Notes under the pieces: model-generated
What the model saw: the letters and a program-made list of their open reading frames with translations, nothing else
Database searches by the model: none
Told to the model about the DNA's origin: nothing
Shown: one piece after another, positions 7,963-50,864 of the stretch
How positions within the stretch are numbered: position 1 is the first letter of the stretch
How the letters are laid out: every line of letters begins with the position of its first letter
NCBI GenBank assembly: GCA_018711995.1
Contig: DVHO01000104.1
Coordinates: forward strand, 18,367 to 82,366
Reading direction: 5' to 3'
DNA length: 64,000 nt
DNA from: Candidatus Pelethousia gallinarum
Lineage (GTDB): Bacteria > Bacillota > Clostridia > Christensenellales > CAG-138
Position numbers and translations under genes: made by a program

Positions 7963-7985
7963 CGTCAATGCCGTTATTCTTGGGT

Positions 7986-8014: not shown

Positions 8015-8054
8015 GGCTTCCGAAACAGATTTACCAGCTTTTCCCCAGGGTTTC

Positions 8055-10043: not shown

Positions 10044-10057
10044 TTACTAATAAATAT

Positions 10058-10561: not shown

Positions 10562-10582
10562 GTCTGTTCTCCTGTTTCTGGT

Positions 10583-10610
10583 ATTTTAAGGGCGGCTTGA
10601 AGCCGCCCCC
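10583..10610 (-). terminator. Weak terminator-like hairpin after icd
   Basis: Minus RNA reads GGGCGGC-uucaa-GCCGCCC followed by UUAAAAU. The U tail is poor. Confidence 0.35.
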
Positions 10611-10640
10611 GTTGACGTTCCTTTATAGATATACCAAAGA

Positions 10641-11852: not shown

Positions 11853-11862
11853 GGGCATCTCC

Positions 11863-13026
11863 TTATTTTTTTGTTATTTTTGCGCCGGATATGGCCTTAT
11901 TCAGGATATCCGAGCGAAATGCAAAACTAGACGCTTGCTTTTCCTCCAGCCCCTGCTGGGCGTACGCTACCAATTTATCTACCAACGCAGCAAACGAGAT
12001 CCCCATGGGTTCGTATAGATAAAATGCGAAGGAACCCGGGATGGTATTGATTTCATTAATGTAAACCTGTTCCCCTTCCAGGATATAGTCCACCCGCACC
12101 ACGCCTTTGCACTCCAGCATACGGAAAACTTCCACCGTATAGTCCTGGATTTGTTTGGTCAGCTCTGGAGAAATGGGGGCGGGGATCTGGCGGCTCAGGC
12201 TCTTCATGCCCTTGCCGTCCCCACGGATATATTTCTCCTCAAAGGTGAGGAAGGTATCCCAGCAAGCGGGCTGCTCGCAAAGGGAAGGCAGGGCCTCCTG
12301 GCTATTGCCCAGGCAGGCGCAGTTGATCTCCACCGGGTGCTCCACCGCCCGTTCGATGAGGATCCGGCGGTCAAAGCTGGCAGCCACCTCCATTGCCTGG
12401 CGGAATCCGTCCGGGTTCACAGCCTTGCCGATGCCGATGGAGCTACCCAGGTTAGCGGGCTTGATGAACATGGGATAACCGATTTCCCCTTCGGCCTTTG
12501 CTAGCACCGCCTGAGGGTCCTGCTGCCATTCCGCCCGGTTGCAGTATACCGCAGGCAGCACCGGTAGGCCCATGCTCTTGAACACGGCCTTCATCACGAT
12601 CTTATCCATGCCCACGGCGCTGCCCACCAGGCCGCAGCTGGAATAGGGGATATCCGCCAGCTCCATCAAGCCCTGCACCGTGCCGTCCTCCCCATGCATT
12701 CCATGGAGGGCCAGAATGGCGCAATCCAGCCCGCATACCCGCTGGGTCTTGCCGAAAAGCCCGCTGCCAAAGCTATACAGGGCGTTGTGGCCGGGCTCAG
12801 GCGGCAAAAACACCCGGGTCAAGCCCTTTTGCTGGGGATCGAAATCCCGGTAGGTCTTTACGTCCCGCAAAGGCTCCCCCACATACCAGGCCCCCGACCG
12901 GGCAATATAAATGGGGAAGGCATGGTATTTTCCTTTGTCTGCATTTTCCAATATCTGTAACCCGCTGATTATGGATACGTCATGCTCGGAAGCCCGGCTT
13001 CCGAAGATCACCCCTAATTCCATCAT
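11863..13026 (-). CDS. ddl: D-alanine--D-alanine ligase family protein (long form, 387 aa)
   Basis: GVIFGSRASEHDVS, HGMHGEDGTVQG, GYPMFIKPANLGSSIGI and YINEINTIPG are ATP-grasp Ddl motifs. An insertion around EEKYIRGDGKGMKSLSRQ makes it longer than E. coli or B. subtilis Ddl. Confidence 0.85.
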   Translation of the reverse strand: MMELGVIFGSRASEHDVSIISGLQILENADKGKYHAFPIYIARSGAWYVGEPLRDVKTYRDFDPQQKGLTRVFLPPEPGHNALYSFGSGLFGKTQRVCGLDCAILALHGMHGEDGTVQGLMELADIPYSSCGLVGSAVGMDKIVMKAVFKSMGLPVLPAVYCNRAEWQQDPQAVLAKAEGEIGYPMFIKPANLGSSIGIGKAVNPDGFRQAMEVAASFDRRILIERAVEHPVEINCACLGNSQEALPSLCEQPACWDTFLTFEEKYIRGDGKGMKSLSRQIPAPISPELTKQIQDYTVEVFRMLECKGVVRVDYILEGEQVYINEINTIPGSFAFYLYEPMGISFAALVDKLVAYAQQGLEEKQASSFAFRSDILNKAISGAKITKK

Positions 13027-13051
13027 GTCAGGTATTCCTCCCTACCTTGCG

Positions 13052-14722: not shown

Positions 14723-14725
14723 ACA

Positions 14726-15490
14726 TCAAGCCTCATTTTGATACAGGATCTGCAGGATGGAACAGAAACGAGGATAGTCCTCCGCATAGGAGAAATGTCC
14801 TACGCCAGGAATAATGGCAAGGCCGGCGTTCTGCATTTCCCGCTCCATTTTCTTCCCCATCCACAGGGGGGTAGCCGTATCTTTTTCCCCCCAGATCAAA
14901 AGGGTTTCATTGGGGATCTTGGAAAGCAGGGATGTCTGATCATAATTGACGGTTTTCACATAGGTGACCCGCATATCCCCCTGCAATTGCTGATATTCTG
15001 TGGAGCCGGCCTTTTTCTGCCGCTCCTGCAAGCGGAAGAGCCGGTTCAAAGCCGGGGACTTGGCCAGGATCTTCCCCAGCTTATAGGTATAGACCCGCCA
15101 ATAATATTTGGGGCCTCGCCTTGGTTTAATGCCGGCCGCGTCCACCAGGATCAGCCGGTGAAATAGTTCCGGCGTTTCGCTGGCCAGCTGAATGGTCACC
15201 CGCCCCCCAAAGGAATGGGCCACCACATCGCACCCGCCAATGCCGATGGCTTCCATAAAGGCCCGGGTGCAAGCGGCATACTCCGGCACCCCCCAAGGTC
15301 CCGGCGGTTCCGGGCTTTCCCCAAAGCCGGGAAAGTCCAGGCTGACCGCTTCCCTGCCCAGCCTGACCAAGCAGTTGGCAATGGGCGCCATGGCCTGAAT
15401 ATTCGCGCCCCAGCCATGGAGCAGCAGCACCGGCTTACCTGAGCCCTGGCGCTGATAATGCAGTTGGGCGCCGTTTATCTCAATCGTCAA
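14726..15490 (-). CDS. Alpha/beta-fold hydrolase
   Basis: 254 aa. HGWG oxyanion region, nucleophile elbow AHSFGG, C-terminal GVGHF. There are 3-nt gaps to both neighbouring genes. Confidence 0.75.
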   Translation of the reverse strand: MTIEINGAQLHYQRQGSGKPVLLLHGWGANIQAMAPIANCLVRLGREAVSLDFPGFGESPEPPGPWGVPEYAACTRAFMEAIGIGGCDVVAHSFGGRVTIQLASETPELFHRLILVDAAGIKPRRGPKYYWRVYTYKLGKILAKSPALNRLFRLQERQKKAGSTEYQQLQGDMRVTYVKTVNYDQTSLLSKIPNETLLIWGEKDTATPLWMGKKMEREMQNAGLAIIPGVGHFSYAEDYPRFCSILQILYQNEA

Positions 15491-19432: not shown

Positions 19433-19503
19433 AAAAATAACCTCCTCTTTGCAGTCCTACTACAGTACATGAGGAGGCTTGACACCAGGGCCATCCTTAT
19501 GTA

Positions 19504-19621
19504 GCAGCGGGATGCGGATACCGCACCGCAAGCCGATGGCCGGCTATTCGTCCGCCCGGCAACTCCCCGTCCAGGCGGCACTCGTCATGAGCCCCATGAC
19601 ACGCGCAATATCCTACTCTGC
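19504..19621 (-). ncRNA. THF (tetrahydrofolate) riboswitch aptamer
   Basis: Minus RNA reads GCAGAGUAGGAUAUUGCGCGU...GGACGGGGAGUUGCC...GGACGAAUAG...GCGGUGCGGUAUCCGCAUCCCGCUGC. This matches the remembered THF-I signature AGAGUAG..GCGU..GGGA.GU..ACGAA..GCGGUG..GCAUCCGCU with P1 GCAG/CUGC. Downstream, CCUCCUC can pair with the folT SD GAGGAGG. Confidence 0.75.
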
Positions 19622-19666
19622 TTTTGCGGATTCATTCTATACCAAATCCAGCTCCATGTAAAGCCC

Positions 19667-37497: not shown

Positions 37498-37603
37498 TCA
37501 ACCAAACTCTGGTCATCCCGGCCACATGGGAGCCCCCACTCCCGGCCGATGACAATACCCCCAACCATCTTCCGCCCCTCGCTTTCCCCGGCAGGGGCGG
37601 GCA

Positions 37604-37642
37604 AAAGGTTCCATGGTTTTCCATGGGCCTTTTGTCGTTTTG
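37604..37642 (+). terminator. Intrinsic terminator candidate after htrA
   Basis: AAAAGGT(T)CCATGG-tttt-CCATGGGCCTTTT followed by GTCGTTTT. It is preceded by two further hairpins (37511-37556, 37575-37603). Confidence 0.55.
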
Positions 37643-37836
37643 GGAGAGAGGGCTCTAGCTTATTCTCGGTTTGTGGGCTGTAAGGAAGCGGTTCTCCTCC
37701 CCCGCCGCTTGCCCTGCCGGTTACCTCACCGCAAAGTCCGGCTGGCCTGTTGTTGCTTGCGATACACCGGCCGTGCCCCTTCCTCTATGCCTTCCTGGGC
37801 CGCGCCGGCCCATAGGGGGATGCGGTCGCCCAGGGG

Positions 37837-37974
37837 GCCGGGGGGCGGGGCGGCGGTTTTGCAGCAGCGGGGCCGGCTTTGCCGGCCCCGCTGCCGCAAA
37901 ACGAGACGCCGGCGGCCAAAGGCCGCCGGCGTCACGGCGCGCTGCGCGCGCCCGCCGCCCCCGCCCCCCGGCCG
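37837..37974. repeat. Nested G/C-rich palindrome: ~21-bp outer inverted repeat enclosing two near-perfect hairpins
   Basis: The outer arms are GGCCGGGGGGCGGGGCGGCGG (37837-37857) and CCGCCGCCCCCGCCCCCCGGCC (37953-37974), complementary with one bulge. Inner hairpin 1: GTTTTGCAGCAGCGGGGCCGGC-TTTG-CCGGCCCCGCTGCCGCAAAAC. Inner hairpin 2: GACGCCGGCGGCC-AAA-GGCCGCCGGCGTC. Confidence 0.7.
37898..37934 (-). terminator. Intrinsic terminator of the cdaA-led array
   Basis: Minus RNA forms a perfect 13-bp stem, GACGCCGGCGGCC-uuu-GGCCGCCGGCGUC, followed by UCGUUUUG. A second 22-bp hairpin follows immediately. Confidence 0.7.
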
Positions 37975-38012
37975 TAGCGATTCCCGGGAAGGCAGGCGCG
38001 ATCGTCGTTTCG

Positions 38013-39719
38013 TTAGGAGAACAATCCCTTGATCCAAGCCCAGATCTGCTGGAAAATGTTTGCATTCCCTTGGCCCTCCGCCGCCTCCGCCTGAGGCGTA
38101 GGGGTGGGAATGGGCAGCTCGGGCTCGATCTCCTCGACGGTAAAGATAAACTGTACGCTTCCATTTTCCACTTCTTTGGCGGCGGAAAATTCATTATATC
38201 CATCGGAGAGATCCAGCAGCGCGTCCTTGCGGGAAAGGGATACGTTGATGGAGCTGGTCTCATCCACCAGTTCCTGCATACCATCCCGATGGAATTCCCG
38301 CAGCCCGTCGTATAGCTCGTCTATGCCGTCCGTTAGCTCGGCGGAGCCGTCCGCCAGCTCCACCGCGCCATCCGCCAGTTCATCCGCCCCGCCGGCCAGG
38401 TCGTATAGGCCCCACGCCAGCTCGTATGCCCCGTCATACAGCTCCTTGACCCCGGTGCGCAGGGCGCCGATGCCGCTGAGCAGCTGCTGCATCTTGGCCT
38501 GCATTCCCGCTATCGCTTCCAGGGCAGCCGTAGCCTCTTCCAGGGCGGTCTGCAATGTTTGAATATAGGTTATCAGGGTCATTGCGTTTTGCGCATTAGT
38601 AGGATCAGTTACTTGTGTCTGTAGCCACGCCATGGCATCTTCTATCTGCTCGCTGCCGCTACCCGTATCGCCGCCTTCGCCGCCGGAGCCGCCGCCCATG
38701 CTGCCCATTGCTTCCAGTTCCTTATACAGCTTATCTATGCCGTCATAGGTCTGGCCGATGCCGTCGGTAAGCTGGGCGCCGCCGTCCGCCGCTTCCAGGG
38801 CGCCGTCCGCCAGCTCCCTGGCCCCGTCCGCAAATTCCACCGCGCCGTCGGTATATTCCTGGCTGCCGTCCCGCAGCTCCTTGGCGCCGTCCCGCAGCTT
38901 ACGGGTGGCGTCCTCCATTTCGTCCAAGCCATCCATCAAGTCCTGCACATCGTCGATGCCGGAAAGGTCGCTTTCGTCCACCAGGCCCACCATGCCGATC
39001 AGCGTGGCTTCCGGCAGGGAAAGGTTCCGCACATCCGTCTCAATGGTGAGGGTATCCTGGATGCTTTCGTTGTCCAGATCATCCAGGCTTTCCCTTAGGC
39101 CGGGCATCAGCACCCCCATCACCGTATTAGTACCGGCCTGATTGGTGAGCTTCCCGCTGGTGGTCACGTTGGAAAAGGTCTCGTCAAAGGTGTACATGCA
39201 GATCACCGTAAAGGGCACATACATATCCACCGCTTCCTCATCCACGGTGACCATATGCATTTCCCGATTGGTCACCTGAATGGTAATGCAAAGGTGCCCG
39301 CTCTGCCCCGCCAGTTCCGCCGCCTGTACCCGCTTGCCATCCAGGGTATAGGTGATAGAAATAGAGAAGGGAAGCGCATCCCCTTCCCCATTCCCCTGGT
39401 AGATCACGTCCTCCCCATCCGCCTTGAAGGTGACGGCCTGTCCCTCTACGGTGGGGGAATCCAGGCCCGCAATGTTTTTGATGTTGGTCAGGGTGGTATA
39501 ATCGGTGAGGCTGTCCTCCTTGGAAGGGTTCCCCAGGTATACGCTGGATGCCACGCTGGTAATGTTGCCGTCGGCGTCCATATCCACATATACCGACTCA
39601 TCCCGCCGGGCGGGTTCCGCGGCGTAGGCGACGCGAGCCAGCAGCAGAGAGGCTGCGCTAATGAGGAACAGCGCGGCCAATATCCAACAAATGATCCGTA
39701 CGATACGACGTTTTTGCAT
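38013..39719 (-). CDS. Secreted/anchored protein with xxxLxxG-type heptad repeats (YhgE/Pip N-terminal-domain-like), lacking a polytopic C-terminal domain
   Basis: I place the start at MQKRRIVRIICWILAALFLISAASLLLARVAYA (Met52 of the track ORF, AAAGGAAG SD), 44 nt after the FtsX gene. There are two blocks of 7-residue periodicity (LRDGAKE LRDGSQE YTDGAVE FADGARE LADGALE ...). Confidence 0.7.
   Translation of the reverse strand: MQKRRIVRIICWILAALFLISAASLLLARVAYAAEPARRDESVYVDMDADGNITSVASSVYLGNPSKEDSLTDYTTLTNIKNIAGLDSPTVEGQAVTFKADGEDVIYQGNGEGDALPFSISITYTLDGKRVQAAELAGQSGHLCITIQVTNREMHMVTVDEEAVDMYVPFTVICMYTFDETFSNVTTSGKLTNQAGTNTVMGVLMPGLRESLDDLDNESIQDTLTIETDVRNLSLPEATLIGMVGLVDESDLSGIDDVQDLMDGLDEMEDATRKLRDGAKELRDGSQEYTDGAVEFADGARELADGALEAADGGAQLTDGIGQTYDGIDKLYKELEAMGSMGGGSGGEGGDTGSGSEQIEDAMAWLQTQVTDPTNAQNAMTLITYIQTLQTALEEATAALEAIAGMQAKMQQLLSGIGALRTGVKELYDGAYELAWGLYDLAGGADELADGAVELADGSAELTDGIDELYDGLREFHRDGMQELVDETSSINVSLSRKDALLDLSDGYNEFSAAKEVENGSVQFIFTVEEIEPELPIPTPTPQAEAAEGQGNANIFQQIWAWIKGLFS
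38306..38480 (-). repeat. 21-nt periodic coding repeats (heptad block 2)
   Basis: Encodes ELYDGAYELAWGLYDLAGGADELADGAVELADGSAELTDGIDELYDG. Recurrent gccgtc(c/g)gcc..ctc units are visible in the DNA. Confidence 0.55.
38735..38905 (-). repeat. 21-nt periodic coding repeats (heptad block 1)
   Basis: Encodes KLRDGAKELRDGSQEYTDGAVEFADGARELADGALEAADGGAQLTDGIGQTYDGIDKLY. Confidence 0.55.
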
Positions 39720-39763
39720 AGTAAGCGTTACTTCCTTTCGTCCTTCCAGGGGTAGCAAAATGC

Positions 39764-42271
39764 CTATTCCGCGCTCTTGAGGGATTCCACCATATCGATG
39801 GAACGAACCTTCTTGCGCATCATCAAATTCACCAGCATGGAAAATACCACGGTCAACAGGAAGGAATAGCAATAGCTGGCTGTTCCCGCATCCCGTACAA
39901 ACATCACTAGATCCACCTCGCAGGTGCGTATCACGAAATTGTGCATGACCTTTCCGAAAGCCAGCCCCACCGCTGCGCCAACCACCGCCAAGGTGTTGTT
40001 TTCCCGGAAGATGTATTGATACATCTCCTTATCATAAAAGCCCAGCACCCGCAGGGTAGCCAATTCCCGTTTTCGCTCTCCCAGGTTGATGTTGGTCAGG
40101 TTCAGCATCACCACAAAGGTGAGCAGGGCGGAGCCTACGATCAGCACCAGGGTCACATAGTTGAGCACTCCCAGGGTGTTGTTCATGTCCTCGTAGAGGC
40201 TGATAAGCTCCTGCACGGTATACATGCGGCTCTCCTTGAGCAGGTCCTCCATCACCTGGTTGCGATCCGCCTCGGTAAGCCCTTCCGCCAGGTTCAGCAT
40301 AAAGCCGTTGTATTCTAGAGTTTTATCGAATACTTTCTGGTAATAGGCTTCGGACATGTACACGTAATGATGCACATAGCTTTCCGCAATGGCGCTTATC
40401 GTTACCTCATAGGATTGGCCCCCGGAGATCACGGAGAAGGTGTCTCCAGCCTCCAGGTCGAAAATCTCCGCCAGTTTATAGGTGATAATAGCCCCGTCAT
40501 CCCCTAGGGTGAGGGGGGTGCCGTCCATCTCCCGCAGCTGGATCTTTCCCTGTAGCTCCCCATTATCCCGCACAGCCAGCACGTGGACGTTGCCTGTGCG
40601 CTGTTCTTCGCTTTGGGCGTCGCAGATGGTATCGTTGCAATACATTACCGAGGTGGCCTGGGCATAGGCCGGGTTGCTTTCCAGCAGGTTTTCCATTTCC
40701 TCTCGGGGCAGGGGCTCATAGGTATAGGCCTGGATGTCCATCTGCCAGATATCGTTGAATTGAAGGTCCACGATGCCAAATATGGATTTTTTTACCCCAA
40801 ACCCGGTCACCAGCAGGGAGCAGCTGCCGGCGATGCCCACAATGCTCATGAAAAAGCGTTTTTTATACCGCAGGATGTTCCGTACCGTCACCTTCCAGGT
40901 GAAGTTGAACCGCTTCCACAGGAAGGGAATTCGCTCCAGGATAACCCGCTTGCCGGCCTTGGGGGCTTTGGGGCGCATCAGGGTAGCGGGCACCTCCTTT
41001 AAAGACATGCCGCTGGCAGCCAGGGTGGCAAGGCCCGTACAGGCTAGGATGGACAGGATGCTGGCCCAGGCGATATCCGGCCGGAAGGGCATCTGGATAT
41101 CCGGGATGCGGTACATGATGGAATAAGCGCTCAGGATCACACCGGGGAACAGCTTAAAGCCGATCACGCAGCCGATCATGCCGCCGCTTACACAAGCGAC
41201 CCCTGCATAGAGCATGTACTTACATGCAATGGTAAAGGTATTGTAGCCCAAAGCCTTTAGCGTACCCATCTCGATCCGCTGCTCCTCCACCATGCGGGTC
41301 ATGGTGGTCAGGCTCACCAGCGCCGCCACGATGAAAAAGATCAAAGGGAATACGTCCCCCACGGCAGCGATGCGCTCGGTATTGTCCCGATAGTCGCTGT
41401 AGCCCGCATTGGCGCTGCGATCGTCCACATACCAGCTGCCGTCCACGGTTTCCCCATAGGCTTCAATGGCGTCGGACGCTTCGGCCACCAGGTCGTCATA
41501 TTCCTGGGAAAAGGAGGAAAGCCCTTCCGGTTTTTTGAGCACCACTTCCGCCTGGGTGTAAGTGGTTTGCAGCAGGGCGGCAATGGGCAGCTTGCTGCCC
41601 AGCTTGCCCAGGGCGTTGCCCCCGGCATAGGCAAAGCCGTCGGAGCTGCCGTTGCCGATGGTGCTGTTTCCCCGCTCGAAAATGCCCACGTATTTGGGGC
41701 TGAATACGCCCCCCACCACCCGCAGCTCCACAGATCCGCTATCCGTACGGAAGGTCACATAATCCCCAAGGTCAAGCTGCAAGGTGGATAGCAGCTGATC
41801 ATCCAGCGCGACCTCCTTATCCGTGAGGGGCAAGCGTCCCGAGGTAAGCTCCGGTACGTTTACAAGCGTCTGCGCTTCTGTGTCGATATCATAGCTGGGT
41901 AAATTGAACCCCACCGGCCGCTCTTCCGGCTCCTTGATCGGCAGGGAAATCAGATGTACGTTTTGCTCCTCCCCATTTTGGGTGGTCATCATGGCGTCCA
42001 TGGATAACTCCGGCTGCACCATTTCCACCTGGGGCATAGCCCGCATGGCGTTGATGTCATCCTCCGTCAGGCCCTGGGAGGACATCACCGTAAGGTCCGA
42101 TAGGTTATCCCGTTCAAAAAGCCGGTCTCCCGCTTCGATCATATCCGGGCTGGCTGCCCGAATCCCTGCAAAAAAGGCGCACCCCAACGCCGATATGGCG
42201 AATATCGACAGAAACCGGGGTGTGTTTTTTTTCACCTCGCGTATCAGGTTATAGAGCAGGAATCGATTCAT
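39764..42271 (-). CDS. ABC transporter permease with two FtsX/MacB-type modules (835 aa)
   Basis: N-terminal TM segment, a large extracytoplasmic domain and 3 TM segments, and then the same arrangement repeated. This is typical of the duplicated FtsX-like permease family. 3-nt gap to the ATPase gene. Confidence 0.8.
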   Translation of the reverse strand: MNRFLLYNLIREVKKNTPRFLSIFAISALGCAFFAGIRAASPDMIEAGDRLFERDNLSDLTVMSSQGLTEDDINAMRAMPQVEMVQPELSMDAMMTTQNGEEQNVHLISLPIKEPEERPVGFNLPSYDIDTEAQTLVNVPELTSGRLPLTDKEVALDDQLLSTLQLDLGDYVTFRTDSGSVELRVVGGVFSPKYVGIFERGNSTIGNGSSDGFAYAGGNALGKLGSKLPIAALLQTTYTQAEVVLKKPEGLSSFSQEYDDLVAEASDAIEAYGETVDGSWYVDDRSANAGYSDYRDNTERIAAVGDVFPLIFFIVAALVSLTTMTRMVEEQRIEMGTLKALGYNTFTIACKYMLYAGVACVSGGMIGCVIGFKLFPGVILSAYSIMYRIPDIQMPFRPDIAWASILSILACTGLATLAASGMSLKEVPATLMRPKAPKAGKRVILERIPFLWKRFNFTWKVTVRNILRYKKRFFMSIVGIAGSCSLLVTGFGVKKSIFGIVDLQFNDIWQMDIQAYTYEPLPREEMENLLESNPAYAQATSVMYCNDTICDAQSEEQRTGNVHVLAVRDNGELQGKIQLREMDGTPLTLGDDGAIITYKLAEIFDLEAGDTFSVISGGQSYEVTISAIAESYVHHYVYMSEAYYQKVFDKTLEYNGFMLNLAEGLTEADRNQVMEDLLKESRMYTVQELISLYEDMNNTLGVLNYVTLVLIVGSALLTFVVMLNLTNINLGERKRELATLRVLGFYDKEMYQYIFRENNTLAVVGAAVGLAFGKVMHNFVIRTCEVDLVMFVRDAGTASYCYSFLLTVVFSMLVNLMMRKKVRSIDMVESLKSAE

Positions 42272-42274
42272 TTT

Positions 42275-42976
42275 TCACCATTCAATATCCTGGATCGGGA
42301 TGGGTTTTTCGTTTCTACGGGAGCTGGAAACGCGGCCATTTTTGATCTTCACAACGATGTCCGCCATGGGCGCCAAAGCGGAATTGTGGGTGATGATGAT
42401 CACCGTCATCCCCTCTTTGCGGCAGGTATCCTGTAACAGCTGCAACACCTGTTTGCCGGTCTGGTAATCCAGGGCGCCGGTGGGCTCATCGCATAGCATA
42501 AGCTTGGGGTTCTTGGCCAAGGCCCGAGCAATGGCCACCCGCTGCTGTTCGCCGCCGGAAAGCTGGGCGGGAAAATTGGTAAGCCGTTCCCCTAACCCTA
42601 CCCCGATCAGGGTATCCTTTGCCGGCCGGGGGTCCTTGCAGATTTGGGAGGCAAGCTCCACGTTTTCCAAGGCCGTAAGGTTTTGCACCAGGTTGTAGAA
42701 CTGAAACACAAACCCTACCGTCTCCCGACGGTAGCGGGTCAGCTGCCGGTTGGAGTATTGCTCGATATGCTCCCCATCCACCACGATCTCTCCGCTGGTG
42801 CAGCTATCCATCCCCCCCAGGATATTCAACAGGGTGGTTTTTCCCGCGCCGCTGGGGCCTACCACCACGCAAAGTTCCCCCTTTTCCAGCTGAAAATCCA
42901 CGCCCGATAGGGCATGAATGGTCACTTCCCCCATCACATATTCCTTGGTCACGCCGCTTAACGCAATATATGCCAT
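42275..42976 (-). CDS. ABC transporter ATP-binding protein (MacB/LolD-like)
   Basis: [27 protein letters not shown] and [12 protein letters not shown]. Confidence 0.9.
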
Positions 42977-42977
42977 G

Positions 42978-43541
42978 CTATGCTCCTTCTTTCAGCCGGA
43001 TATGCTTCTGGGCAAAGGCCTGCCCGAAAATTCCCCGATATAGCCGGTCCATGGAGGGCAATAACCTGGCCCCAACCGTTCCGGGGCCTGTCATGATACA
43101 ATAATGTTCCTCCAAGATGCTGGCTTTCAGCTGGGTCATCCGGCAGCCGTTCCGCTGATAAAACGCAATGCGCCGCTCCCGCTTGACCCGGTCCTGTTCA
43201 TCCAGGGAAAAGGCGGGGTCCTCCACCTCCAGCACCAGGCCGGGCACCTGAGCGCAAACCGCCTGGAAAAAGGCGCTACCATAACCCTTGGAGCGGAAGC
43301 TGGGTTCGATGGCGTAGTAATCCAGCAAAGTGTTGCCAGCCTGCCGGCCGGGTTTATAAAACAACATATAGCCCACCCGGGCGCCTTCCTCAAAATAGCC
43401 GTATCCCATATACCGGCCTTGGAGCCACAGGTATAAAATCCGCCAGAGGGGCTTGATCTCCCCTTTATGAAAATCCCGCGCCATAGAGCCGTGGATTCGA
43501 ATCAATTCAAGCAGTGTCAATTTGCGGGTGTTTCCTTGCAT
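42978..43541 (-). CDS. GNAT family N-acetyltransferase
   Basis: 187 aa. AIEPSFRSKGYGSAFF is an acetyl-CoA-binding motif A-like sequence. 1-nt gap to the ABC ATPase gene. Confidence 0.7.
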   Translation of the reverse strand: MQGNTRKLTLLELIRIHGSMARDFHKGEIKPLWRILYLWLQGRYMGYGYFEEGARVGYMLFYKPGRQAGNTLLDYYAIEPSFRSKGYGSAFFQAVCAQVPGLVLEVEDPAFSLDEQDRVKRERRIAFYQRNGCRMTQLKASILEEHYCIMTGPGTVGARLLPSMDRLYRGIFGQAFAQKHIRLKEGA

Positions 43542-43559
43542 TTTTCCTTTCCTTTCACT

Positions 43560-45371
43560 TTATTTGATCATCACCCCGATGATCTTCTGGCCTTCACCAC
43601 GGCCATACTGACCCCGGGTGCCCACCACCAGCATGTTGTTGAATACCGCCGGGGTGGACTCAATGCGAGAGCCTAAATCCACTTCGCAAATCTGTTGGCC
43701 GCTGATCCCGTCATACATGCGCAATAGGCCGTTGCGGTCGCATTGGAGCACATAGCCCTTTTCGTTTTGGTCATAGATCACCACCGGGCTGGCCCAGTAG
43801 CCGGAGATCTGTTCCACCTGCCAAACCACCTCCCCGGTATCCTTGCTCCGGGCCACGAGCAAGCCGCCGTATTGGGCCTGGCCCTCCACCGTCACTGACA
43901 CGTCGGAGCAGGCGAAGATCACCAGATCCTCCAAGTCCCCTTTCCCCACATGGGGGGTGGCCATGGTACCCTCATCCAGGGCTGCCGGGATGGAATAGGA
44001 CCACAGGGTCTCCCCGGTCAACCCGTCGATCTTTCGATGGATGGTCTCTCCCACCCCGTCTGTGGCTCCCCGGCTGGATACCTTGTTGCCGCCATACAGG
44101 TAAATGGTCCCGTCTGCCGGCGCTTCTTCCAGCACCATGGTGGCGTCCTGGTCATCCCCCACATCGGAAACATAGAGCAATTCCAAGGTATTCAGATCTA
44201 CGCATTGGAGATAACCGCCATTGTCGGCAAAGAAGCCGTAATTCCGCCAAATGGTCAGGGAATCTTCCATCCCCCACCAGCGTTTGTTATCGCTCTCCCC
44301 GTAGCCGGTAGCGGTATAGGTATATTTTTCCGGCGGGTCCGGATTCAAGGAAAGGGTGCCTGCCTGGGGATCGTAGCTGGTATGAAGCTTGCAGGTATAC
44401 AGCACCCCGTTTTCCCCTACGGTGAGCAGGGTATCCGTGGCCGCGTCCAATAGGGGGCTGGCGTCAAAGGCCTGCCACAGCCGAGGCGAAAAGGGGTCCC
44501 GCCCGCCTAGGCTCCAGATCTCCTGGTTGTCGATGAGGGAGATGGCCCGAATCCAGGCCCCCATGGTCTGCTTGGGCTCCGTTGGGGTGGGGATGCCCTG
44601 CCCCACGAACAGCAAAGGATATCCCCGGGGATCCAGCATGGCCGTACCCTTGAATACCTGTCCCAGGTCGATGGGCGCCCGGGTCTCCAGGCCGGTGGAA
44701 AGCTCCATAAAGTAGATCTTCCCATCCATGGCCGGATAGATCACCTCGGTAAAGCCTTCTTTTTCCTTAAAGCTATCGTATATGCCCAGGGTCGCCCGTA
44801 CCGAATCCTCCCACTGGACGATCAGGGGCTGTCCCGTCCAACCGGTGCCGGTCCAGGTGCCGTTTTCCGGGGTGGCCAGGGAACCGGTGGATACCTCCCA
44901 GCTGCGGCTCAGCTTGGCCTCGTTGACCACCTGCTCCCCATAGGTAAAGGTATTGCGCCAATGGTTCCCCCCAAAGGTGGTGATCCCCTTCACCCCCGCC
45001 GCATACTCGGTATCCGAACCAAACAAGATGCCTTCCGGCCGCTGGTAGGTTTGCACCTCCTGCTTGTTCGCCATGATCCGGGTGGTAAACCCGGCCGCGG
45101 ATATGGAGGCGGCGTCCTTTTGGATGGTCACCTGTTCCGGCAGGTCCGTGGCAGGCGGCGGGGTGGATAAAGCGGTTTCTGCCGGAGGCGGTGTGTTCTC
45201 TGGCTGCTGCTTCTTCCCGATGGCTGCAATGCCTGCCGCCACCAAACGGTACAATCCATACAGCAAACCCAAGATCAAACAAAGAAAAACCAGCAGCACC
45301 AGGATACGCCGGCGCACATATTTCCGGCTGATTTTTTTGTTGCGCGGGACGCTCCGTTTGCCGCTAGCCAT
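43560..45371 (-). CDS. Membrane-anchored PQQ-like/BamB-like beta-propeller repeat protein
   Basis: 603 aa. Basic N-terminus plus a TM segment (ILVLLVFLCLILGLLYGLY), a Pro-rich linker, then repeated DGxIY-type blades (AMDGKIYFMELSTG, GENGVLYTC, DNGGYLQCVDLNT, DGTIYLYGG, DRNGLLRMYDGISG). Confidence 0.65.
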   Translation of the reverse strand: MASGKRSVPRNKKISRKYVRRRILVLLVFLCLILGLLYGLYRLVAAGIAAIGKKQQPENTPPPAETALSTPPPATDLPEQVTIQKDAASISAAGFTTRIMANKQEVQTYQRPEGILFGSDTEYAAGVKGITTFGGNHWRNTFTYGEQVVNEAKLSRSWEVSTGSLATPENGTWTGTGWTGQPLIVQWEDSVRATLGIYDSFKEKEGFTEVIYPAMDGKIYFMELSTGLETRAPIDLGQVFKGTAMLDPRGYPLLFVGQGIPTPTEPKQTMGAWIRAISLIDNQEIWSLGGRDPFSPRLWQAFDASPLLDAATDTLLTVGENGVLYTCKLHTSYDPQAGTLSLNPDPPEKYTYTATGYGESDNKRWWGMEDSLTIWRNYGFFADNGGYLQCVDLNTLELLYVSDVGDDQDATMVLEEAPADGTIYLYGGNKVSSRGATDGVGETIHRKIDGLTGETLWSYSIPAALDEGTMATPHVGKGDLEDLVIFACSDVSVTVEGQAQYGGLLVARSKDTGEVVWQVEQISGYWASPVVIYDQNEKGYVLQCDRNGLLRMYDGISGQQICEVDLGSRIESTPAVFNNMLVVGTRGQYGRGEGQKIIGVMIK

Positions 45372-45374
45372 GGA

Positions 45375-46349
45375 TTATTCCTCCGTTTTCTGCTGGGTCT
45401 CCTCGGGCGCGGGGGTCTGCGCCGGCTCCTCCTCGTCGGGGAAATCCGCCGGGTCTTCTATAAACGTAATGCTGCCTTTCCCGCTTTCAAACCGGGGCGC
45501 TGGCGTACAATGGCCCAATACCGTAATGGAATCCAGCTGTTCAAACAGGAACAAGCCGCTGGAATTCTCCCCGCCCGTCGCCTCGATGGTCACCATGCCG
45601 GATACAGACAGGGCGCCGATCTCCGCCCCATGGTAATGGCCGCTGTTTTCCACCTTCAAGGAGGCGCCATCCAACATGGTAAGGGTGCTATCACACTTAA
45701 GGGCATTGTAGTTCTCCTGGGTAAAAGCCCCTAAGGAGGCGCCTTCCTTCAGGAGGATCGAACCTGCAATATCGGCGCCGCCCAGGGGGCCTTGGCCGGT
45801 GACGCTAGCCCCTGCCTCCAGGATCAAGTCGGCGGCGATCAAGCCGGTCCCGTTGGTGGCCGTAGCCTGGATGTCGCTATTGGGCAGGATGGTCACCGTG
45901 CCGGCGGCCCGGATCCCGTTTCCCAAGCCTACGATGGAAAGGCCGCTGCCTCCAATGGAAGCATCCCCCAAGCAGCCGATGGCATCGGCGCCGCTATGGA
46001 TCACCACGTCATTCAAAGTCACAGAGCAGCCTTCCTCCAGCCGGATCACGCAATCCCCTGCCCCAGACAGGGTGAATCCATTGCCATTGATCACTAAGCC
46101 ATCCCGCTCCTTGGTGATACGCAACATCTCCTGTTCCAGGCTGATGTCCCCGGAAAGGGTGGCTGTATTGGACTCCCCCCGCTCAAGGAAGGCTAAAAGA
46201 TCCGCCCCGGTCACAATGGAGCTGCCGCCAATGGGATCCGCCAACTCCACCTGCGCTTCCTCTTCCTCGCCTGCGCACCCGGCCAACAGCATGGCGCACA
46301 GCGCAAGGAGCACGATCAGCTTATAGACAAACGGACTTATTTTCTGCAA
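45375..46349 (-). CDS. Lipoprotein with parallel beta-helix-like Gly/Asn-rich repeats
   Basis: 324 aa. Lipobox LLAGC. The body has ~20-25-residue periodicity (INGNGFTLSGAGDCVIRL / VTLNDVVIHSGADAIGCLG / LSIVGLGNGIRAAGTVTIL ...). Acidic Pro-rich tail. Confidence 0.55.
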   Translation of the reverse strand: MQKISPFVYKLIVLLALCAMLLAGCAGEEEEAQVELADPIGGSSIVTGADLLAFLERGESNTATLSGDISLEQEMLRITKERDGLVINGNGFTLSGAGDCVIRLEEGCSVTLNDVVIHSGADAIGCLGDASIGGSGLSIVGLGNGIRAAGTVTILPNSDIQATATNGTGLIAADLILEAGASVTGQGPLGGADIAGSILLKEGASLGAFTQENYNALKCDSTLTMLDGASLKVENSGHYHGAEIGALSVSGMVTIEATGGENSSGLFLFEQLDSITVLGHCTPAPRFESGKGSITFIEDPADFPDEEEPAQTPAPEETQQKTEE

Positions 46350-46359
46350 ATCAAACCTC

Positions 46360-47967
46360 CTACTGTATGGGCTTGTATAATGCCATCAAACGTTCAGCGG
46401 CCCTTAGGCCATCCACCGCCGCGCTAACGATCCCGCCTGCGTAGCCGGCGCCCTCCCCCACGGGATATAAGCCGGCCATGGTAGGCGCTTGGCCGGTCCC
46501 GTCCCGGAGAATGCGCACCGGCGCGCTGGTCCGGCTCTCCACGCCGGTGAGGACCCCATCGGGCAGGTCATACCCTCGAAGTTTTTGTCCAAACTGGCGA
46601 ATGCCTGCCTGGATGCCTGCGGTTACAAAATCCGGCAGGCATTGGGACAGGCTTCGCGCCGCCACTCCAGGCCGGTATGTGGGGATCACGCCGCCAAAGG
46701 GGCCAGGCTGCTCCCCCCTTAAAAAATCGCAGATCCGCTGGGCGGGCGCCGTATAGTCCCCGCCCCCCAAGCGGAAGGCTGCCTCTTCCATTCGCTCCTG
46801 AAAGCGGAGCCCGTCAAGGGGATGATACCCAAAATCCTTGGGTTCTACCTGTACCACAATGGCCGCGTTGGAATTTTGTCCGTCCCGGGCATGGTAGCTC
46901 ATACCGTTTGTGACCACTTGACCAGGGGAGGAGCTGGACGCCACCACCACCCCGCCTGGGCACATGCAAAAGGTATATACCCCTCGACTCTCATGGCGGG
47001 CCGTCAACTGATATTCCGCCGCTCCCAGCCGGGGATGGCCGGCAAAGGCGCCAAACTGGGCCTGATCGATGAGCGCCCGTGGATGCTCCGCCCGCACCCC
47101 TACGGCAAAGGCCTTGGGCTGCATTTCCAAGCCGGCTGCATACAGCATCCGATAGGTATCCCGGGCGCCCTGGCCGATGGCCAGGATGCAGGCGGATACC
47201 GGCTGGATATGCTTCCCGGCCGGCGTTTCCAATTCTAACGCAGTCAACTGCCCTCCCTTGGAAACCAACCCTGTCAATTTCGTTTGGAAGCATACCTGGC
47301 CGCCTTTGGACTGGATATCCTCCCGCAGGGCCTGCACCACTTGTACCAGGCGATCCGTCCCAAGATGGGGCTTTGCCTGCACCAGGATCTCCTCGGGCGC
47401 CCCGTGGGCCGCCAACAGCTCCAGCACCCAATGGGCCCAAGGGTCTTTGATGCGGGTGGTAAGTTTCCCATCGGAAAAGGCGCCCGCGCCCCCTTCCCCG
47501 AACATCACGTTGCTGTCTGGGTCCAAAGGACCGCCGGCGAAAAATCGCGCCACCCGGCTGCTTCGTTCCGTTACCGGCTGCCCTCGCTCAATCACCAAGG
47601 GAGCGTAACCTTGGCTGGCCAAGGCATGGGCTGCAAATAACCCTCCTGGTCCCAGCCCCACCACTGCGATGGGAGCATCCAGGCTTTTTTCGCCTATTGG
47701 CCAACAAACGGGTTCCCGGGGCTGGGCCGCCTCTACGCCAGGCAGCGCCTTGCCGAGAATCCGTTTCTCTAATGGGGTATGAAGCTGTACCTCTACCGTA
47801 CAAGCATAATAGATGTCTTGTTTCTTGCGTGCATCCAGAGAGGTACGCACAAGCCGTAACCCCACAATATCATCTGTCCGTATTCTAAGAGCCCTCGCTG
47901 CTCGTTCCGGCAGCGAGGACTCATCCGCAGTAAGCGGGAGTTTTAATCCGGTTATCTTAAGCGCCAT
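46360..47967 (-). CDS. FAD-dependent protein (COG2509-type NAD(P)/FAD-dependent oxidoreductase)
   Basis: 535 aa. A ferredoxin-like N-domain (GLRLVRTSLDARKK), then the dinucleotide-binding motif VVGLGPGGLFAA. 1-nt gap after cdaR. Confidence 0.7.
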   Translation of the reverse strand: MALKITGLKLPLTADESSLPERAARALRIRTDDIVGLRLVRTSLDARKKQDIYYACTVEVQLHTPLEKRILGKALPGVEAAQPREPVCWPIGEKSLDAPIAVVGLGPGGLFAAHALASQGYAPLVIERGQPVTERSSRVARFFAGGPLDPDSNVMFGEGGAGAFSDGKLTTRIKDPWAHWVLELLAAHGAPEEILVQAKPHLGTDRLVQVVQALREDIQSKGGQVCFQTKLTGLVSKGGQLTALELETPAGKHIQPVSACILAIGQGARDTYRMLYAAGLEMQPKAFAVGVRAEHPRALIDQAQFGAFAGHPRLGAAEYQLTARHESRGVYTFCMCPGGVVVASSSSPGQVVTNGMSYHARDGQNSNAAIVVQVEPKDFGYHPLDGLRFQERMEEAAFRLGGGDYTAPAQRICDFLRGEQPGPFGGVIPTYRPGVAARSLSQCLPDFVTAGIQAGIRQFGQKLRGYDLPDGVLTGVESRTSAPVRILRDGTGQAPTMAGLYPVGEGAGYAGGIVSAAVDGLRAAERLMALYKPIQ

Positions 47968-47968
47968 G

Positions 47969-49249
47969 TCATCTAATTGTGATCGTCACCGTTTGCGGTA
48001 AGATCACATATTCCAATTCATTCTCTGTATCTCCTGGTATAGCCACCTGTACAGGCACCACATGCTGGCCTGCCTGTAATCCTTCCGCATCCACATATGC
48101 GGTCACATCGCCCCGTTCCAGCTGCCGCATCAGGCTCAACCGGCCAGAAACGGTGATGCTGCAGGTGGAGGCGGATAAGGTGGCTTCCAGCCCCCGATCC
48201 AGGTTCCGTATATCAATTGCCATATCCGCCAGGATCCGTTCCTCTGTCTTTTCCCGGATATCCACGAATAGGTTCACCTCCTGATCATCCAGCAGGATCA
48301 CCCCCTCCGGCACCTCCAGCAAAACGGTCTCCAGCACGCTGGCACTCATGCCTGATACATCGATCTGTTCCAGGGAAATGCTGCTAAGCTTCTCCAAGTC
48401 TTCTGGATCGCCCGCCACTCGCACTTCCGCTGGCGTAGCCACAATATCCACTACCTCGTAATTGGTTGGCAATGCGTCTTGCCCCAAGACCGCTGAATCC
48501 ACATCGATGGGCAATGTGACGGTCTTAAGCACATCCATCTTTACCACCACCGATGGCAATACATCGATGAACAACCCGCTATCCACCGTATCTCCATTCT
48601 CGTCCAAAAGGATCAAGGAAACGGATTCATTATAGCTGGTGGTTCGGTCTGTAAGCATGATGGGGCATTTGGCTTTGACTACCTTGGCCACGTCTTCCGC
48701 CGCCCCTCGCACGATCAGGCTTTCAGAGCTCAGGGTCGGCGTACCCCGCCAATAGGAGTCTGGCAGCGTGCCCACAAAATCCACATTGATGGGTACGGTC
48801 TTGGCTGCCAGGTCATCCACTTCTATGATCACTTCCCGGGGGGATACGGACACCACATTCCCATTCTGGGCGGTGGCATAGATCCGAAGCTGATAGGTGC
48901 CCGGTTTGCTGATGGAACGCAAGCTGACGGTTGCATTGATGCTGGAAGCGTCCAGGTTCTTGTAATCGGTAATCTTTGCCTTTACCTCCACCGTGACATC
49001 TGGCAACAACTGGCTGCGGTTGCCTTGCACCGTCAGGTTTTTACTTTGTAGCTCGTCCTCTCCATCGAAGCTCACCGTCACATCGGATATGATCTTGGTT
49101 CGCTCCGGGTCCGTCTCCATCATCACATAACCCCATAGCAGTACGGCAAAGGCTAAGGATATGATCTTCAGGGCGATATTTTTACTGAAAAAGGTTTTAA
49201 GCCCAGCTAAAATACGTTTGCCTAAATCCTTACGCTTATTTTCGTTCAT
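47969..49249 (-). CDS. cdaR: CdaR (YbbR-domain regulator of diadenylate cyclase)
   Basis: I place the start at MNENKRKDLGKR... (Met26). It has an N-terminal TM segment and then repeated YbbR-like beta-domains. It overlaps the cdaA 3' end by 14 nt. Confidence 0.8.
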   Translation of the reverse strand: MNENKRKDLGKRILAGLKTFFSKNIALKIISLAFAVLLWGYVMMETDPERTKIISDVTVSFDGEDELQSKNLTVQGNRSQLLPDVTVEVKAKITDYKNLDASSINATVSLRSISKPGTYQLRIYATAQNGNVVSVSPREVIIEVDDLAAKTVPINVDFVGTLPDSYWRGTPTLSSESLIVRGAAEDVAKVVKAKCPIMLTDRTTSYNESVSLILLDENGDTVDSGLFIDVLPSVVVKMDVLKTVTLPIDVDSAVLGQDALPTNYEVVDIVATPAEVRVAGDPEDLEKLSSISLEQIDVSGMSASVLETVLLEVPEGVILLDDQEVNLFVDIREKTEERILADMAIDIRNLDRGLEATLSASTCSITVSGRLSLMRQLERGDVTAYVDAEGLQAGQHVVPVQVAIPGDTENELEYVILPQTVTITIR

Positions 49250-50081
49250 CCTTCGCCCTCCTTTTGAAAAGGGTAAACGTGTTCCCTTCCCGCTCCGTAA
49301 CGAAAATGGATTCCAGAAGGTCACGCAGGGCCTTGCTGTCGATATAGCGGATCAGCTTGCCGTCTCGGGCAATGGAGATCACGCCAGTTTCCTCGGATAC
49401 GACAATGGTAATGCTATCGGAAACGCTGGAGATCCCCAGGGCCGCCCTGTGCCGGGTCCCCAACTCCCTGGCCACGGCAATATCCTCCGCCAGGGGCAGG
49501 AAGCAGGCGGCGGCAACAATGGAGCCTTCCCGGATGATCATGGCCCCGTCATGGAGAGGGGTGTTGGGCTCAAAGATGTTTTCCACCAAGGGTGCGGAAA
49601 TGCGGCCGTCGATCCGTGTCCCGGTATTGATGATGTCTCCCAGGCCCGTTCGTCGTTCAATGACGATCAGCGCGCCCACCCGACGCTTTGCCAGGCTGAT
49701 AACAGCCTGTTGCAGTTCATCTACGATCACCTTCGGCTCGCTCATCAGGCTGCCGATAAAATCCTTTGAGAAGATATTGCCACGGCCGATGTGCTCCAGC
49801 GCCCGGCGGATTTCCGGCTGGAACAGCACCACTGCCAGGATCATGCCTACGGATAATAGGGAGCTGAGCAGCCAGCTCAACGTGGGAAATTGGAAAAAAT
49901 CGCTGACAATGGCAGCAATAAACAGCACACCAATTCCCTTGAGCACCTGATAGGCGCGGGTCTCCTTGGTGAGCAAAATAAGCTGATATAATAGGATCGC
50001 TATGATCAGAATATCCAGCACATCTGCCAGCAAAAACTGATGCAAGTCTCCTGAAATGGTCCTTGCCAGAACGTCCAGCAA
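49236..50081 (-). CDS. cdaA: Diadenylate cyclase CdaA (DisA_N/DAC domain, three N-terminal TM segments)
   Basis: 281 aa, TTG start with AAAGGTGG SD. DAC motifs GALIVIER, TPLHDGAMII and LGTRHRAALG. Confidence 0.9.
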   Translation of the reverse strand: MLDVLARTISGDLHQFLLADVLDILIIAILLYQLILLTKETRAYQVLKGIGVLFIAAIVSDFFQFPTLSWLLSSLLSVGMILAVVLFQPEIRRALEHIGRGNIFSKDFIGSLMSEPKVIVDELQQAVISLAKRRVGALIVIERRTGLGDIINTGTRIDGRISAPLVENIFEPNTPLHDGAMIIREGSIVAAACFLPLAEDIAVARELGTRHRAALGISSVSDSITIVVSEETGVISIARDGKLIRYIDSKALRDLLESIFVTEREGNTFTLFKRRAKDERK

Positions 50082-50184
50082 ATCCGATTTACCACCTTTC
50101 AGCGATTGATAGCCTTAGCCTCTCAAAAAACTATTGTACAACTTTCGTTGCGTCCCTGCACAGGGAAATGGGACTGTTTACAAA

Positions 50185-50439
50185 TTATTCTTGTTTTAGC
50201 TCCGTTTCATCCTGGGCATCCGGGGCCAATGCCATCAGTCTTTTTTCCATATCCATAATCGAATAAAGGAAATTTTCCAGCTCCGTGCTTTCTGCGCACA
50301 GCGCCTCATCCCCTAGGGAACCGGTTTCCCGAAGGGTTCTAGAACATTTCTGGGTAAAGGATTCCTGCCAGGTCTCCGCTTGCGCTTTCATACGTCCCAA
50401 AGCGTCCCAGGACAACGCGATATCTTTTTCTTCCTGCAT
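50185..50439 (-). CDS. Hypothetical small acidic protein (84 aa)
   Basis: Good AAGGAG SD 8 nt upstream of the ATG. No family recognised. Confidence 0.5.
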   Translation of the reverse strand: MQEEKDIALSWDALGRMKAQAETWQESFTQKCSRTLRETGSLGDEALCAESTELENFLYSIMDMEKRLMALAPDAQDETELKQE

Positions 50440-50651
50440 AGGACAACTCCTTTTTCTGCTGGCATTTCAGGGAAATATCCTGGCTAGCCTACATGGCAGC
50501 GGCCATCGCTAGGGCAAAAAGGCCGTTTTTCCGTATCATAGCCATTACGCTAGTTTGATTGTATCATATAAATAAGATAATTCCTAGATATACTTTGTGG
50601 CGATATGGTGATAGAATCAAAGAAATATTGCCAGGAAAGGAACCATTTTTC

Positions 50652-50864
50652 ATGCCGATTATCGATCGTTTTGAAGGGGACATAGCAATTTGGGAAGGGG
50701 GCAGCGCGCCTAGGACGCAACTACCGATGGCGGCCCGGGAAGGAGACGTGCTGGCCTTGGATGAAGACGGCCAATATTATATCGATCTGGAAGCCACCCA
50801 AGCCCGGCGCCAGGAGATGGCCAGCCGGCTCCACAGCCTATTCCAGCGGACGGCAAAAAACTAG
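50652..50864 (+). CDS. DUF3006 family protein
   Basis: I place the start at MPIIDRFEGDIAIWEGG... (Met32 of the track ORF). The pattern IDRFEGD.A..E and the ~70-aa size fit DUF3006. Confidence 0.65.
   Translation: MPIIDRFEGDIAIWEGGSAPRTQLPMAAREGDVLALDEDGQYYIDLEATQARRQEMASRLHSLFQRTAKN

Follow-up and report, generated by a model that had tools for sequence, protein, structure and literature searches.

In Bacillus, Listeria and Staphylococcus the gene for the diadenylate cyclase CdaA lies in the conserved operon cdaA-cdaR-glmM. A related set of genes was analyzed here in a 64,000-nucleotide stretch of DNA from Candidatus Pelethousia gallinarum (contig DVHO01000104.1, positions 18,367 to 82,366; hereafter the window, to which all positions without a locus number refer), where nine consecutive genes on the minus strand (38013-50081; ORF list of the open reading frames) begin with cdaA and cdaR. 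These two genes match the described operon in their order, in a CdaA composed of a membrane domain and a DAC domain, and in the overlapping gene for a YbbR-type CdaR. The array differs from that operon in its third gene, which codes for a flavin adenine dinucleotide (FAD)-dependent protein of the COG2509 type, and in having no phosphoglucosamine mutase gene within 64 kb. It continues with genes for a lipoprotein, a beta-propeller, a GNAT acetyltransferase, an ATP-binding cassette (ABC) ATPase, a permease with two FtsX domains, and a heptad-repeat protein referred to below as the needle protein.

The closest described relatives of the last three genes are the MacB-type (type VII) ABC systems (MacAB-TolC, LolCDE, FtsEX, YtrEF and YbbA/YbbP). 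MacA has a hairpin, and the FtsEX partners EnvC, PcsB and CwlO have coiled coils. The array shares with these systems a LolD/FtsE/MacB-like ATPase, FtsX four-helix domains and a MacB-type extracytoplasmic core, and its accessory protein has a long alpha-helical hairpin that recalls the one in MacA as well as the coiled coils of EnvC, PcsB and CwlO. It differs from them in a fused double-FtsX permease of 835 amino acids (aa), in the lipoprotein and propeller partners, which have no counterpart there, and in an accessory with no HlyD, lipoyl, barrel, hydrolase or LytM domain; the host is also taken to have no outer membrane or TolC. The FtsEX-EnvC system has been described previously (PMC7668044).

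The array is regarded, with moderate confidence, as a real cluster, probably one transcription unit in the window species, that was assembled from three separable modules. The first would consist of a small ORF, cdaA, cdaR and the FAD gene; the second of the lipoprotein and propeller genes, with the GNAT gene as an insert; and the third of the ATPase, double-FtsX permease and needle genes. No paper was found in the literature on a connection of cdaA with COG2509, with a propeller or with an FtsX-type system, or on the five-gene machine which the second and third modules would form, and the papers found that mention COG2509 are unrelated.

Organization of the array

An earlier reading of the window, made by a model from the letters and the ORF list without database searches (the sequence-only reading), had described nine same-strand genes and the junctions between them. 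Both proved exact; the junctions, recomputed from cdaA to the needle gene, are -14, 1, 10, 3, 18, 1, 3 and 44 nt, and a plausible Shine-Dalgarno sequence is present ahead of all nine genes. The family assignments were upheld by Pfam and NCBIfam profiles, by the lipobox in the case of the lipoprotein, and by an AlphaFold model in the case of the propeller. The two hairpins reported behind the last gene, a perfect stem of 13 bp and directly after it a stem of 22 bp, are real (folding z = -8). A hairpin scan of the array itself gave no strong terminator, only hairpins of 5-8 bp that all lie within coding sequence; the sequence-only reading, which could not find a hairpin plus U-tract inside the array, was borne out as far as strong terminators go, and weak sites within genes are considered in the Discussion. 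A scan for sigma-70-like promoters gave no excess of sites over shuffled sequence (9 vs 10.4 +/- 3.4).

Because the gaps are tiny, promoters and terminators are missing between the genes and a terminator stands at the end, co-transcription is most likely in the window species, and we infer a single transcript there. The position of the five-gene machine directly behind cdaA-cdaR-FAD likewise makes its co-expression with the cyclase most likely, and this would proceed from promoters upstream of cdaA.

The 103-nt gap ahead of cdaA contains the extended -10-like motif TGTACAAT, a candidate promoter that is missing from the consensus promoter scan list because of its weak -35 region; the Shine-Dalgarno sequence AAAGGTGG lies downstream of it. 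A second extended -10-like motif, TGATACAAT, is located at 50558-50566, upstream of an 84-aa ORF, and TGnTACAAT motifs are found ahead of both this ORF and cdaA. The 84-aa ORF gave no Pfam match and has no transmembrane (TM) segment. Its position is kept in the related loci of class A (defined below) with 41-99% identity by tblastn, and the genes called there code for 84-97 aa. Since the ORF is conserved, on the same strand and just upstream, the unit may begin with it rather than with cdaA. The statement that cdaA heads the array is accordingly correct for the nine genes but may not be so for the transcription unit. The features are collected in Table 1.

Table 1. Positions of the genes and signals of the array in the window, with the evidence for each
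Feature	Position	Strand	Evidence or remark
Conserved 84-aa ORF	50185-50439	-	about 100 nt upstream of cdaA, same strand
Extended -10-like motif TGTACAAT	50133-50140	-	in 103-nt gap ahead of cdaA; candidate promoter, by inference only
cdaA	49236-50081	-	membrane-anchored diadenylate cyclase; TIGR00159, PF19293, PF02457
cdaR	47969-49249	-	YbbR-domain regulator; PF07949; 14-nt overlap with cdaA
COG2509-type FAD-dependent protein	46360-47967	-	DUF8436 and FAD-depend_C (PF21688)
Lipoprotein, 324 aa	45375-46349	-	lipobox; repeats of about 23 residues
Membrane-anchored 8-blade PQQ/BamB-like beta-propeller, 603 aa	43560-45371	-	AlphaFold, Foldseek
GNAT acetyltransferase	42978-43541	-	Acetyltransf_1, Acetyltransf_7
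ABC ATPase, LolD/FtsE/MacB type	42275-42976	-	PF00005
Fused double-FtsX permease, 835 aa	39764-42271	-	FtsX x2, MacB_PCD x2
Heptad (needle) protein, 568 aa	38013-39719	-	TIGR03057
Hypervariable needle apex, aa ~341-410	38490-38699	-	entropy, dN/dS, apex types
Intrinsic terminator, perfect 13-bp GC-rich stem then TCGTTTTG	37905-37933	-	hairpin scan, folding
Second hairpin, 22-bp stem, TTTT and AAAA on its flanks	37857-37901	-	minimum-free-energy structure

Conservation of the gene order in related loci

About 100 related loci were gathered using as anchors the FAD protein, an alignment of the propeller in metagenomes, and individual propeller or needle homologues with their Pfam context, and were scored by tblastn and de novo ORF clustering. 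A scan of genome contigs with the FAD protein returned 9 loci, too few for statistics. The nearest public genome was UMGS474, an uncultured 'Clostridiales' from the human gut, and the sources of the propeller homologues were labelled Ca. Pelethousia, Christensenellaceae/Christensenellales and Feifaniaceae. The arrangements are grouped below as classes A to D.

Class A, with the order cdaA-cdaR-FAD-lipoprotein-propeller, was found in every lineage that has a propeller at least 52% identical to that of the array and a contig long enough. The first two modules adjoin each other and are co-directional in the window species and in L001/L016, L010, L012, L014, L024/26/27, L028, L030, L062, L095 and L102 (propeller identity to the window 52-99%); a thyX gene is inserted between the FAD and lipoprotein genes in L102. 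The ABC, FtsX and needle genes stand directly behind the second module in the window, L001/L016, L010 and L014. They are split from the propeller gene by opposite-strand genes (119-120-aa ORF, MFS-like) in L024/26/27, L030, L062 and L095, and are absent from L020, L102 and L012, the last having polysaccharide deacetylase and gyrB genes instead.

In class B (L031-L042, L061, L072, L098, L099) the lipoprotein, propeller, ABC, FtsX and needle genes form a separate operon with no cdaA within 10 kb; a gene for a 75-aa XRE helix-turn-helix protein, two CNNM/CBS genes and a methionine ABC system lie upstream. As the second and third modules have this operon of their own in other gut Clostridia, together they would constitute a self-contained extracytoplasmic machine. 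Class C (L041, L048/51/53, L101) has cdaA-cdaR-FAD followed by two propeller genes. Behind the two propeller paralogues of L101 (4194-12680) the same strand carries a gene for an MscS-type mechanosensitive channel; L048 and L051 have a needle-type gene 2.4 kb upstream of cdaA. Class D comprises propeller genes alone or in tandem in unrelated contexts (including L096, L097 and L100). In a rough neighbour-joining tree of the propellers, classes A and B formed one clade with class C as its sister.

The proposal of the sequence-only reading that cdaA is coupled to an envelope gene set was therefore sustained in part: the genes are tightly packed, one promoter region for all of them is plausible, a terminator stands at the end, and cdaA-cdaR-FAD-lipoprotein-propeller recurs in loci with propellers 52-75% identical, but the ABC-FtsX-needle genes are split off in at least five lineages, absent in three and stand-alone in class B. 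Likewise, in the comparison of synteny downstream of cdaR, which had been suggested for Oscillospirales and other Clostridia, the adjacency of the first and second modules was conserved, but the third was not consistently coupled, and the relatives are not clearly Oscillospirales. These gene orders indicate that the link between the first two modules is old and persists across the clade at the family level, and that the link to the third is labile and lineage-specific. Co-transcription with cdaA is thus likely in the window species, and is not a conserved requirement.

The cyclase module and the position of glmM

In profile searches CdaA matched TIGR00159 (251.6 bits; cutoff 188.8), CdaA_N (PF19293) and DAC (PF02457), and its N-terminus has three hydrophobic segments. 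CdaR matched PF07949 (YbbR, 74.5 bits) in three stretches and has one N-terminal TM segment. The third protein matched PF21688 (FAD-depend_C, E 4e-76) and PDB entry 3NLC (1.6e-133); the latter is VP0956, an uncharacterised protein that is a close relative of the array FAD protein.

The FAD gene adjoins cdaA-cdaR in L002, L004 and all class A and class C loci. The order in L004 (967-7950), a Syntrophomonadaceae metagenome-assembled genome (MAG), is cdaA-cdaR-COG2509 FAD-glmM-glmS, so that the FAD gene is inserted within the classical cdaA-cdaR-glmM order. In L002 (Bacillota MAG; 7746-15053), L003 and L063 (167-5703), cdaA-cdaR(-FAD) is followed by 2-oxoacid:ferredoxin oxidoreductase genes; in L002 and L063 these code for the alpha, beta and gamma components and are accompanied by a gene for a 265-aa protein of no assigned function. 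A seven-gene operon separates glmM from cdaA-cdaR in C. difficile (bioRxiv 10.1101/2021.08.23.457418), and the arrangement in L002 and L063 may correspond to it.

The absence of glmM, noted earlier for the array, extends to the whole 64-kb window: neither glmM nor glmS was found with the PGM active-site motif [ST]ASHNP or by tblastn with GlmM and GlmS of L004, and there is no second DAC gene. An Rfam search of the window gave no c-di-AMP (cyclic diadenosine monophosphate) riboswitch, its sole match being a tetrahydrofolate (THF) riboswitch. The sequence-only reading had named no earlier description of the linkage of cdaA to envelope genes, and the linkage is absent from the literature found. 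The lack of an adjacent glmM is not new, being known from C. difficile. The first module, (small ORF)-cdaA-cdaR-COG2509, is widespread in Clostridia and represents their version of the c-di-AMP synthase operon; in it glmM is located behind the FAD gene, several genes off or elsewhere in the genome.

The lipoprotein, the propeller and the GNAT gene

The lipoprotein has the lipobox LLAGC (Cys25) and a hydrophobic periodicity of 23 residues, and was matched by nothing in Pfam, NCBIfam or PDB. It may have a beta-helix fold, for which the periodicity is the sole support. Orthologues of 39-66% identity are encoded in classes A and B, always immediately upstream of the propeller gene.

Profile searches with the propeller gave weak PQQ_2/propeller matches. 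Its AlphaFold model has 8 blades (pLDDT, the predicted local distance difference test score, 85; pTM, the predicted template modelling score, 0.83), and Foldseek matched it to PQQ dehydrogenases, tetrathionate hydrolase and BamB at 11-14% identity with E values of about 1e-12 to 1e-14. The family has more than 1000 members; about 90 residues are invariant among 25 homologues, and the conserved motifs GTGWTGQP, DPRGYPLL and GSRIESTPAV are specific to it. The array protein therefore shares the 8-blade fold with BamB and the PQQ-dependent dehydrogenases, and differs from them in its low identity, its N-terminal TM anchor, its own motifs and a cell taken to be monoderm. The GNAT gene is restricted to lineages with a propeller at least 71% identical to that of the array, and is a lineage-specific, recent insert.

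The transporter and the needle protein

The ATPase matched PF00005 with 120.6 bits. Its best NCBIfam match was LolD (211 bits), with DevA, FtsE and MacB also matched, all under their equivalog cutoffs, which places it within the LolD/FtsE/MacB clade with no named equivalog; it is 80-88% identical between classes A and B. The permease matched PF02687 (FtsX, 89.7 bits) and PF12704 (MacB_PCD, 40.9 bits) in two stretches each. Its 8 TM segments are accompanied by two extracytoplasmic domains, one of about 260 aa and the other of about 210 aa. It gave a weak match to YtrF (PDB 9o9x), fell far under the cutoffs of the YbbP, LolCE and ADOP models, and is 57-78% identical across classes. The transporter falls within the MacB-type superfamily and outside its named equivalogs.

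The needle protein has a single TM segment, which is N-terminal, and matched TIGR03057 (xxxLxxG repeats) in four stretches with 79.5 bits. In the AlphaFold model the TM helix is followed by a beta-sandwich (aa 38-244), an ascending helix of 87 residues, a Gly/Ser loop, helices that descend to near residue 479, a strand leading back into the sandwich, a linker rich in Pro and an amphipathic C-terminal helix. The xxxLxxG repeats would form a helical hairpin with about 90 residues in each arm. The C-terminal helix is conserved in the alignment, with W562 and F567 invariant.

The N-terminal beta-sandwich alone has 3846 cluster representatives. All sampled members of the needle family carry TIGR03057, and none has a Pfam domain or the YhgE/Pip end domains (the latter checked in seven). 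A distant member of 850 aa is encoded in L103 (5914-10553), where its gene overlaps the end of an MMPL/RND transporter gene by 4 nt, the two being translationally coupled, and a TetR gene is divergent. By analogy, this one locus suggests that proteins of the needle family are accessories of exporters of different energy classes, in the manner of diderm adaptors.

Described systems were considered as identities for these proteins and rejected. A MacAB-type tripartite pump with a MacA-HlyD adaptor was discarded as none of the nine proteins gave an HlyD or Biotin_lipoyl Pfam match and the base of the needle is a different beta-sandwich. The needle has no LytM, CHAP or NlpC/P60 domain such as would mark a hydrolase-activating partner of FtsEX. 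For a known defence system, PADLOC returned generic ABC/AAA matches for the ATPase and one weak LolE_TM match for the permease. The proteins of the YhgE/Pip family (e.g. PIP_EF of Enterococcus faecalis) resemble the needle in their xxxLxxG repeats and in a large extracytoplasmic helical region with a strain-variable segment. The needle differs from them in its single N-terminal TM segment and in the beta-sandwich base, which defines a large separate family; it was not counted among them because it gave no N- or C-terminal YhgE/Pip NCBIfam match (E <= 0.01) and has one TM segment rather than six.

Variability of the needle apex

The first search for needle homologues returned same-species variants only, and 121 of these were compared. 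A stretch of about 65 aa at the apex of the hairpin, from about residue 341 to 405, is hypervariable: column entropy is 1.0-1.24 bits there against at most 0.1 elsewhere, the ratio of nonsynonymous to synonymous substitution rates (dN/dS) is 0.8-2.2 against about 0.1 in the remaining gene, and median pairwise identity is 52% against 97% for the remaining protein. At least 14 apex types occur among the 121 variants, and they do not track strain relatedness. A hypervariable, recombining apex argues for a tip at the surface, and the data fit exposure of the apex there. Hypervariability was not seen in a small class B sample, and the claim is limited to the species group of the window. A diversity-generating retroelement was rejected as its source: no reverse transcriptase was found by Pfam in the array genes and their ten nearest neighbours (no dedicated search was made), and the alleles have the look of classes that recombine.

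The variable region of PIP_EF, which spans about 160 aa, determines phage tropism (PMC4999554). The needle apex resembles that region, and by this analogy the needle of the array may serve as a phage receptor.

Between the window and UMGS474 (L016/L001) the synonymous divergence (dS) is 0.5-0.9 for the cdaA, cdaR, FAD, lipoprotein and ABC genes and 0.10-0.31 for the propeller, GNAT, FtsX and needle genes. Such a mosaic points to recombination, and suggests that parts of the array were exchanged recently between related species.

Genes flanking the array

Upstream of the array are a divergent DUF3006-like ORF (about 50652-50864, plus strand), a GerA/GerB/GerC operon, and genes for an SH3/peptidoglycan-binding protein and a class A penicillin-binding protein (PBP). 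A convergent HtrA protease gene and genes for a ParA/Mrp ATPase, an amidase and ClpB lie downstream. The sporulation and germination genes nearby, such as the GerA germinant-receptor operon, point to one of the spore-forming Clostridia, and the host is taken to be monoderm. The needle gene is separated from the convergent HtrA gene by about 500 nt of GC-rich sequence (37498-38012) with no credible ORF; L010 has a MerR/RDD-domain gene at the equivalent position. The THF riboswitch mentioned above (RF01831, 72.8 bits) is located at 19503-19622 (minus strand), upstream of minus-strand genes at about 19.5 kb.

Discussion

The favoured interpretation is that of a real cluster of three modules, which in the window species is probably transcribed as one unit. 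In its mechanistic part, hydrolysis of ATP by the ATPase would move the two outer domains of the permease, which are of the MacB type, and these movements would act on or through the needle, whose hairpin of about 13 nm might be long enough to cross the wall; as extracytoplasmic partners the lipoprotein and the propeller would take part. The gene content, the junctions, the distribution of the modules and the hypervariable apex are observed directly, mechanotransmission is a putative role, and a functional link to c-di-AMP signalling is plausible.

A number of observations weigh against this interpretation. Internal promoters within coding sequence are possible, and weak in-gene hairpin-plus-T sites numbered 30 against 15 +/- 4 expected (both strands, 16.5 kb scanned). 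The loci were sampled with the propeller and the FAD gene as starting points, which biases their frequencies. The flanks of class A loci are syntenic too (GerA operon, DUF3006, PBP, HtrA, ParA, amidase, ClpB), so that part of the conservation of the array is inherited gene order, which limits what adjacency can prove; the adjacency of the first two modules could itself be inherited order with no functional meaning. As to the third module, its mechanistic role is drawn from family analogy, the needle model is of moderate confidence (pLDDT 67), a fold search with that model returned only generic beta-sandwich (mu-homology domains) and coiled-coil matches, and the MMPL pairing is known from one locus.

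A stronger form of the link would have the lipoprotein and propeller, and the ABC-needle system where present, as sensors or effectors that act via the YbbR domains of CdaR to tune CdaA; in these Clostridia they would hold the regulatory position that in Bacilli is indicated by an adjacent GlmM, and the state of wall and turgor would set the output of c-di-AMP. We consider such functional coupling possible but unlikely. The cdaA-cdaR-FAD genes keep a propeller neighbour over deep divergence in three arrangements, with the lipoprotein gene in class A, with a second propeller gene in class C and with thyX in L102, and this is more than a single frozen accident. The channel gene behind the two propellers of L101, the needle-type gene upstream of cdaA in L048/L051, and the extracytoplasmic or membrane-anchored nature of CdaR and all these products point the same way. 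However, the propeller is also found alone in unrelated contexts (L096, L097, L100 and many other loci of class D) and in the class B operon, which lacks cdaA; cdaA-cdaR-FAD occurs with no propeller in L002 and L004; and Pfam searches of the genes downstream of cdaA-cdaR gave none of the c-di-AMP-binding domains RCK_C, CBS and USP.

That the array is a chance juxtaposition of two or three independent units packed head to tail, where the lipoprotein-propeller and ABC-FtsX-needle units would be read from promoters within the coding sequences ahead of them, is distinctly improbable: in class B an upstream region and a regulator gene belong to the module itself, the ABC unit of several class A lineages is preceded by opposite-strand genes and so needs its own promoter there, and long-range synteny of the flanks would make gene order here generally inert, but in the window the gaps of 10 nt (FAD-lipoprotein), 18 and 1 nt (around GNAT) and 44 nt (FtsX-needle) leave no room for an intergenic promoter or terminator, sigma-70-like sites are no more frequent than in shuffled sequence, and only behind the last gene is there a strong terminator.

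The most far-reaching version of the three-module interpretation is speculative, and we hold it to be rather unlikely as a whole. The lipoprotein, the propeller, the MacB-type ABC transporter and the needle with its variable tip would be an undescribed wall-spanning machine of gut Clostridia, which in one clade has been wired into the c-di-AMP synthase operon and either feeds the state of wall and turgor to CdaR/CdaA or is put to use through expression linked to c-di-AMP; in Clostridia the cyclase would have the COG2509 flavoprotein as its third conserved partner.

The data on the control of CdaA by the state of the envelope are nearly all from Bacilli, in which CdaA is known to have GlmM and CdaR as partners. 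In Clostridia another conserved gene stands third, that of the COG2509 flavoprotein, and in one gut clade two extracytoplasmic proteins travel with the cyclase operon, which makes them concrete candidates for inputs from the envelope side. The five-gene module, a conserved MacB-type system of monoderm bacteria, has so far gone unstudied. The needle belongs to a family of thousands of unannotated proteins, and in the window species it has a hypervariable tip of the kind seen in phage receptors; this variable tip bears on how abundant uncultured gut Clostridia interact with phages and with the immune system of the host.

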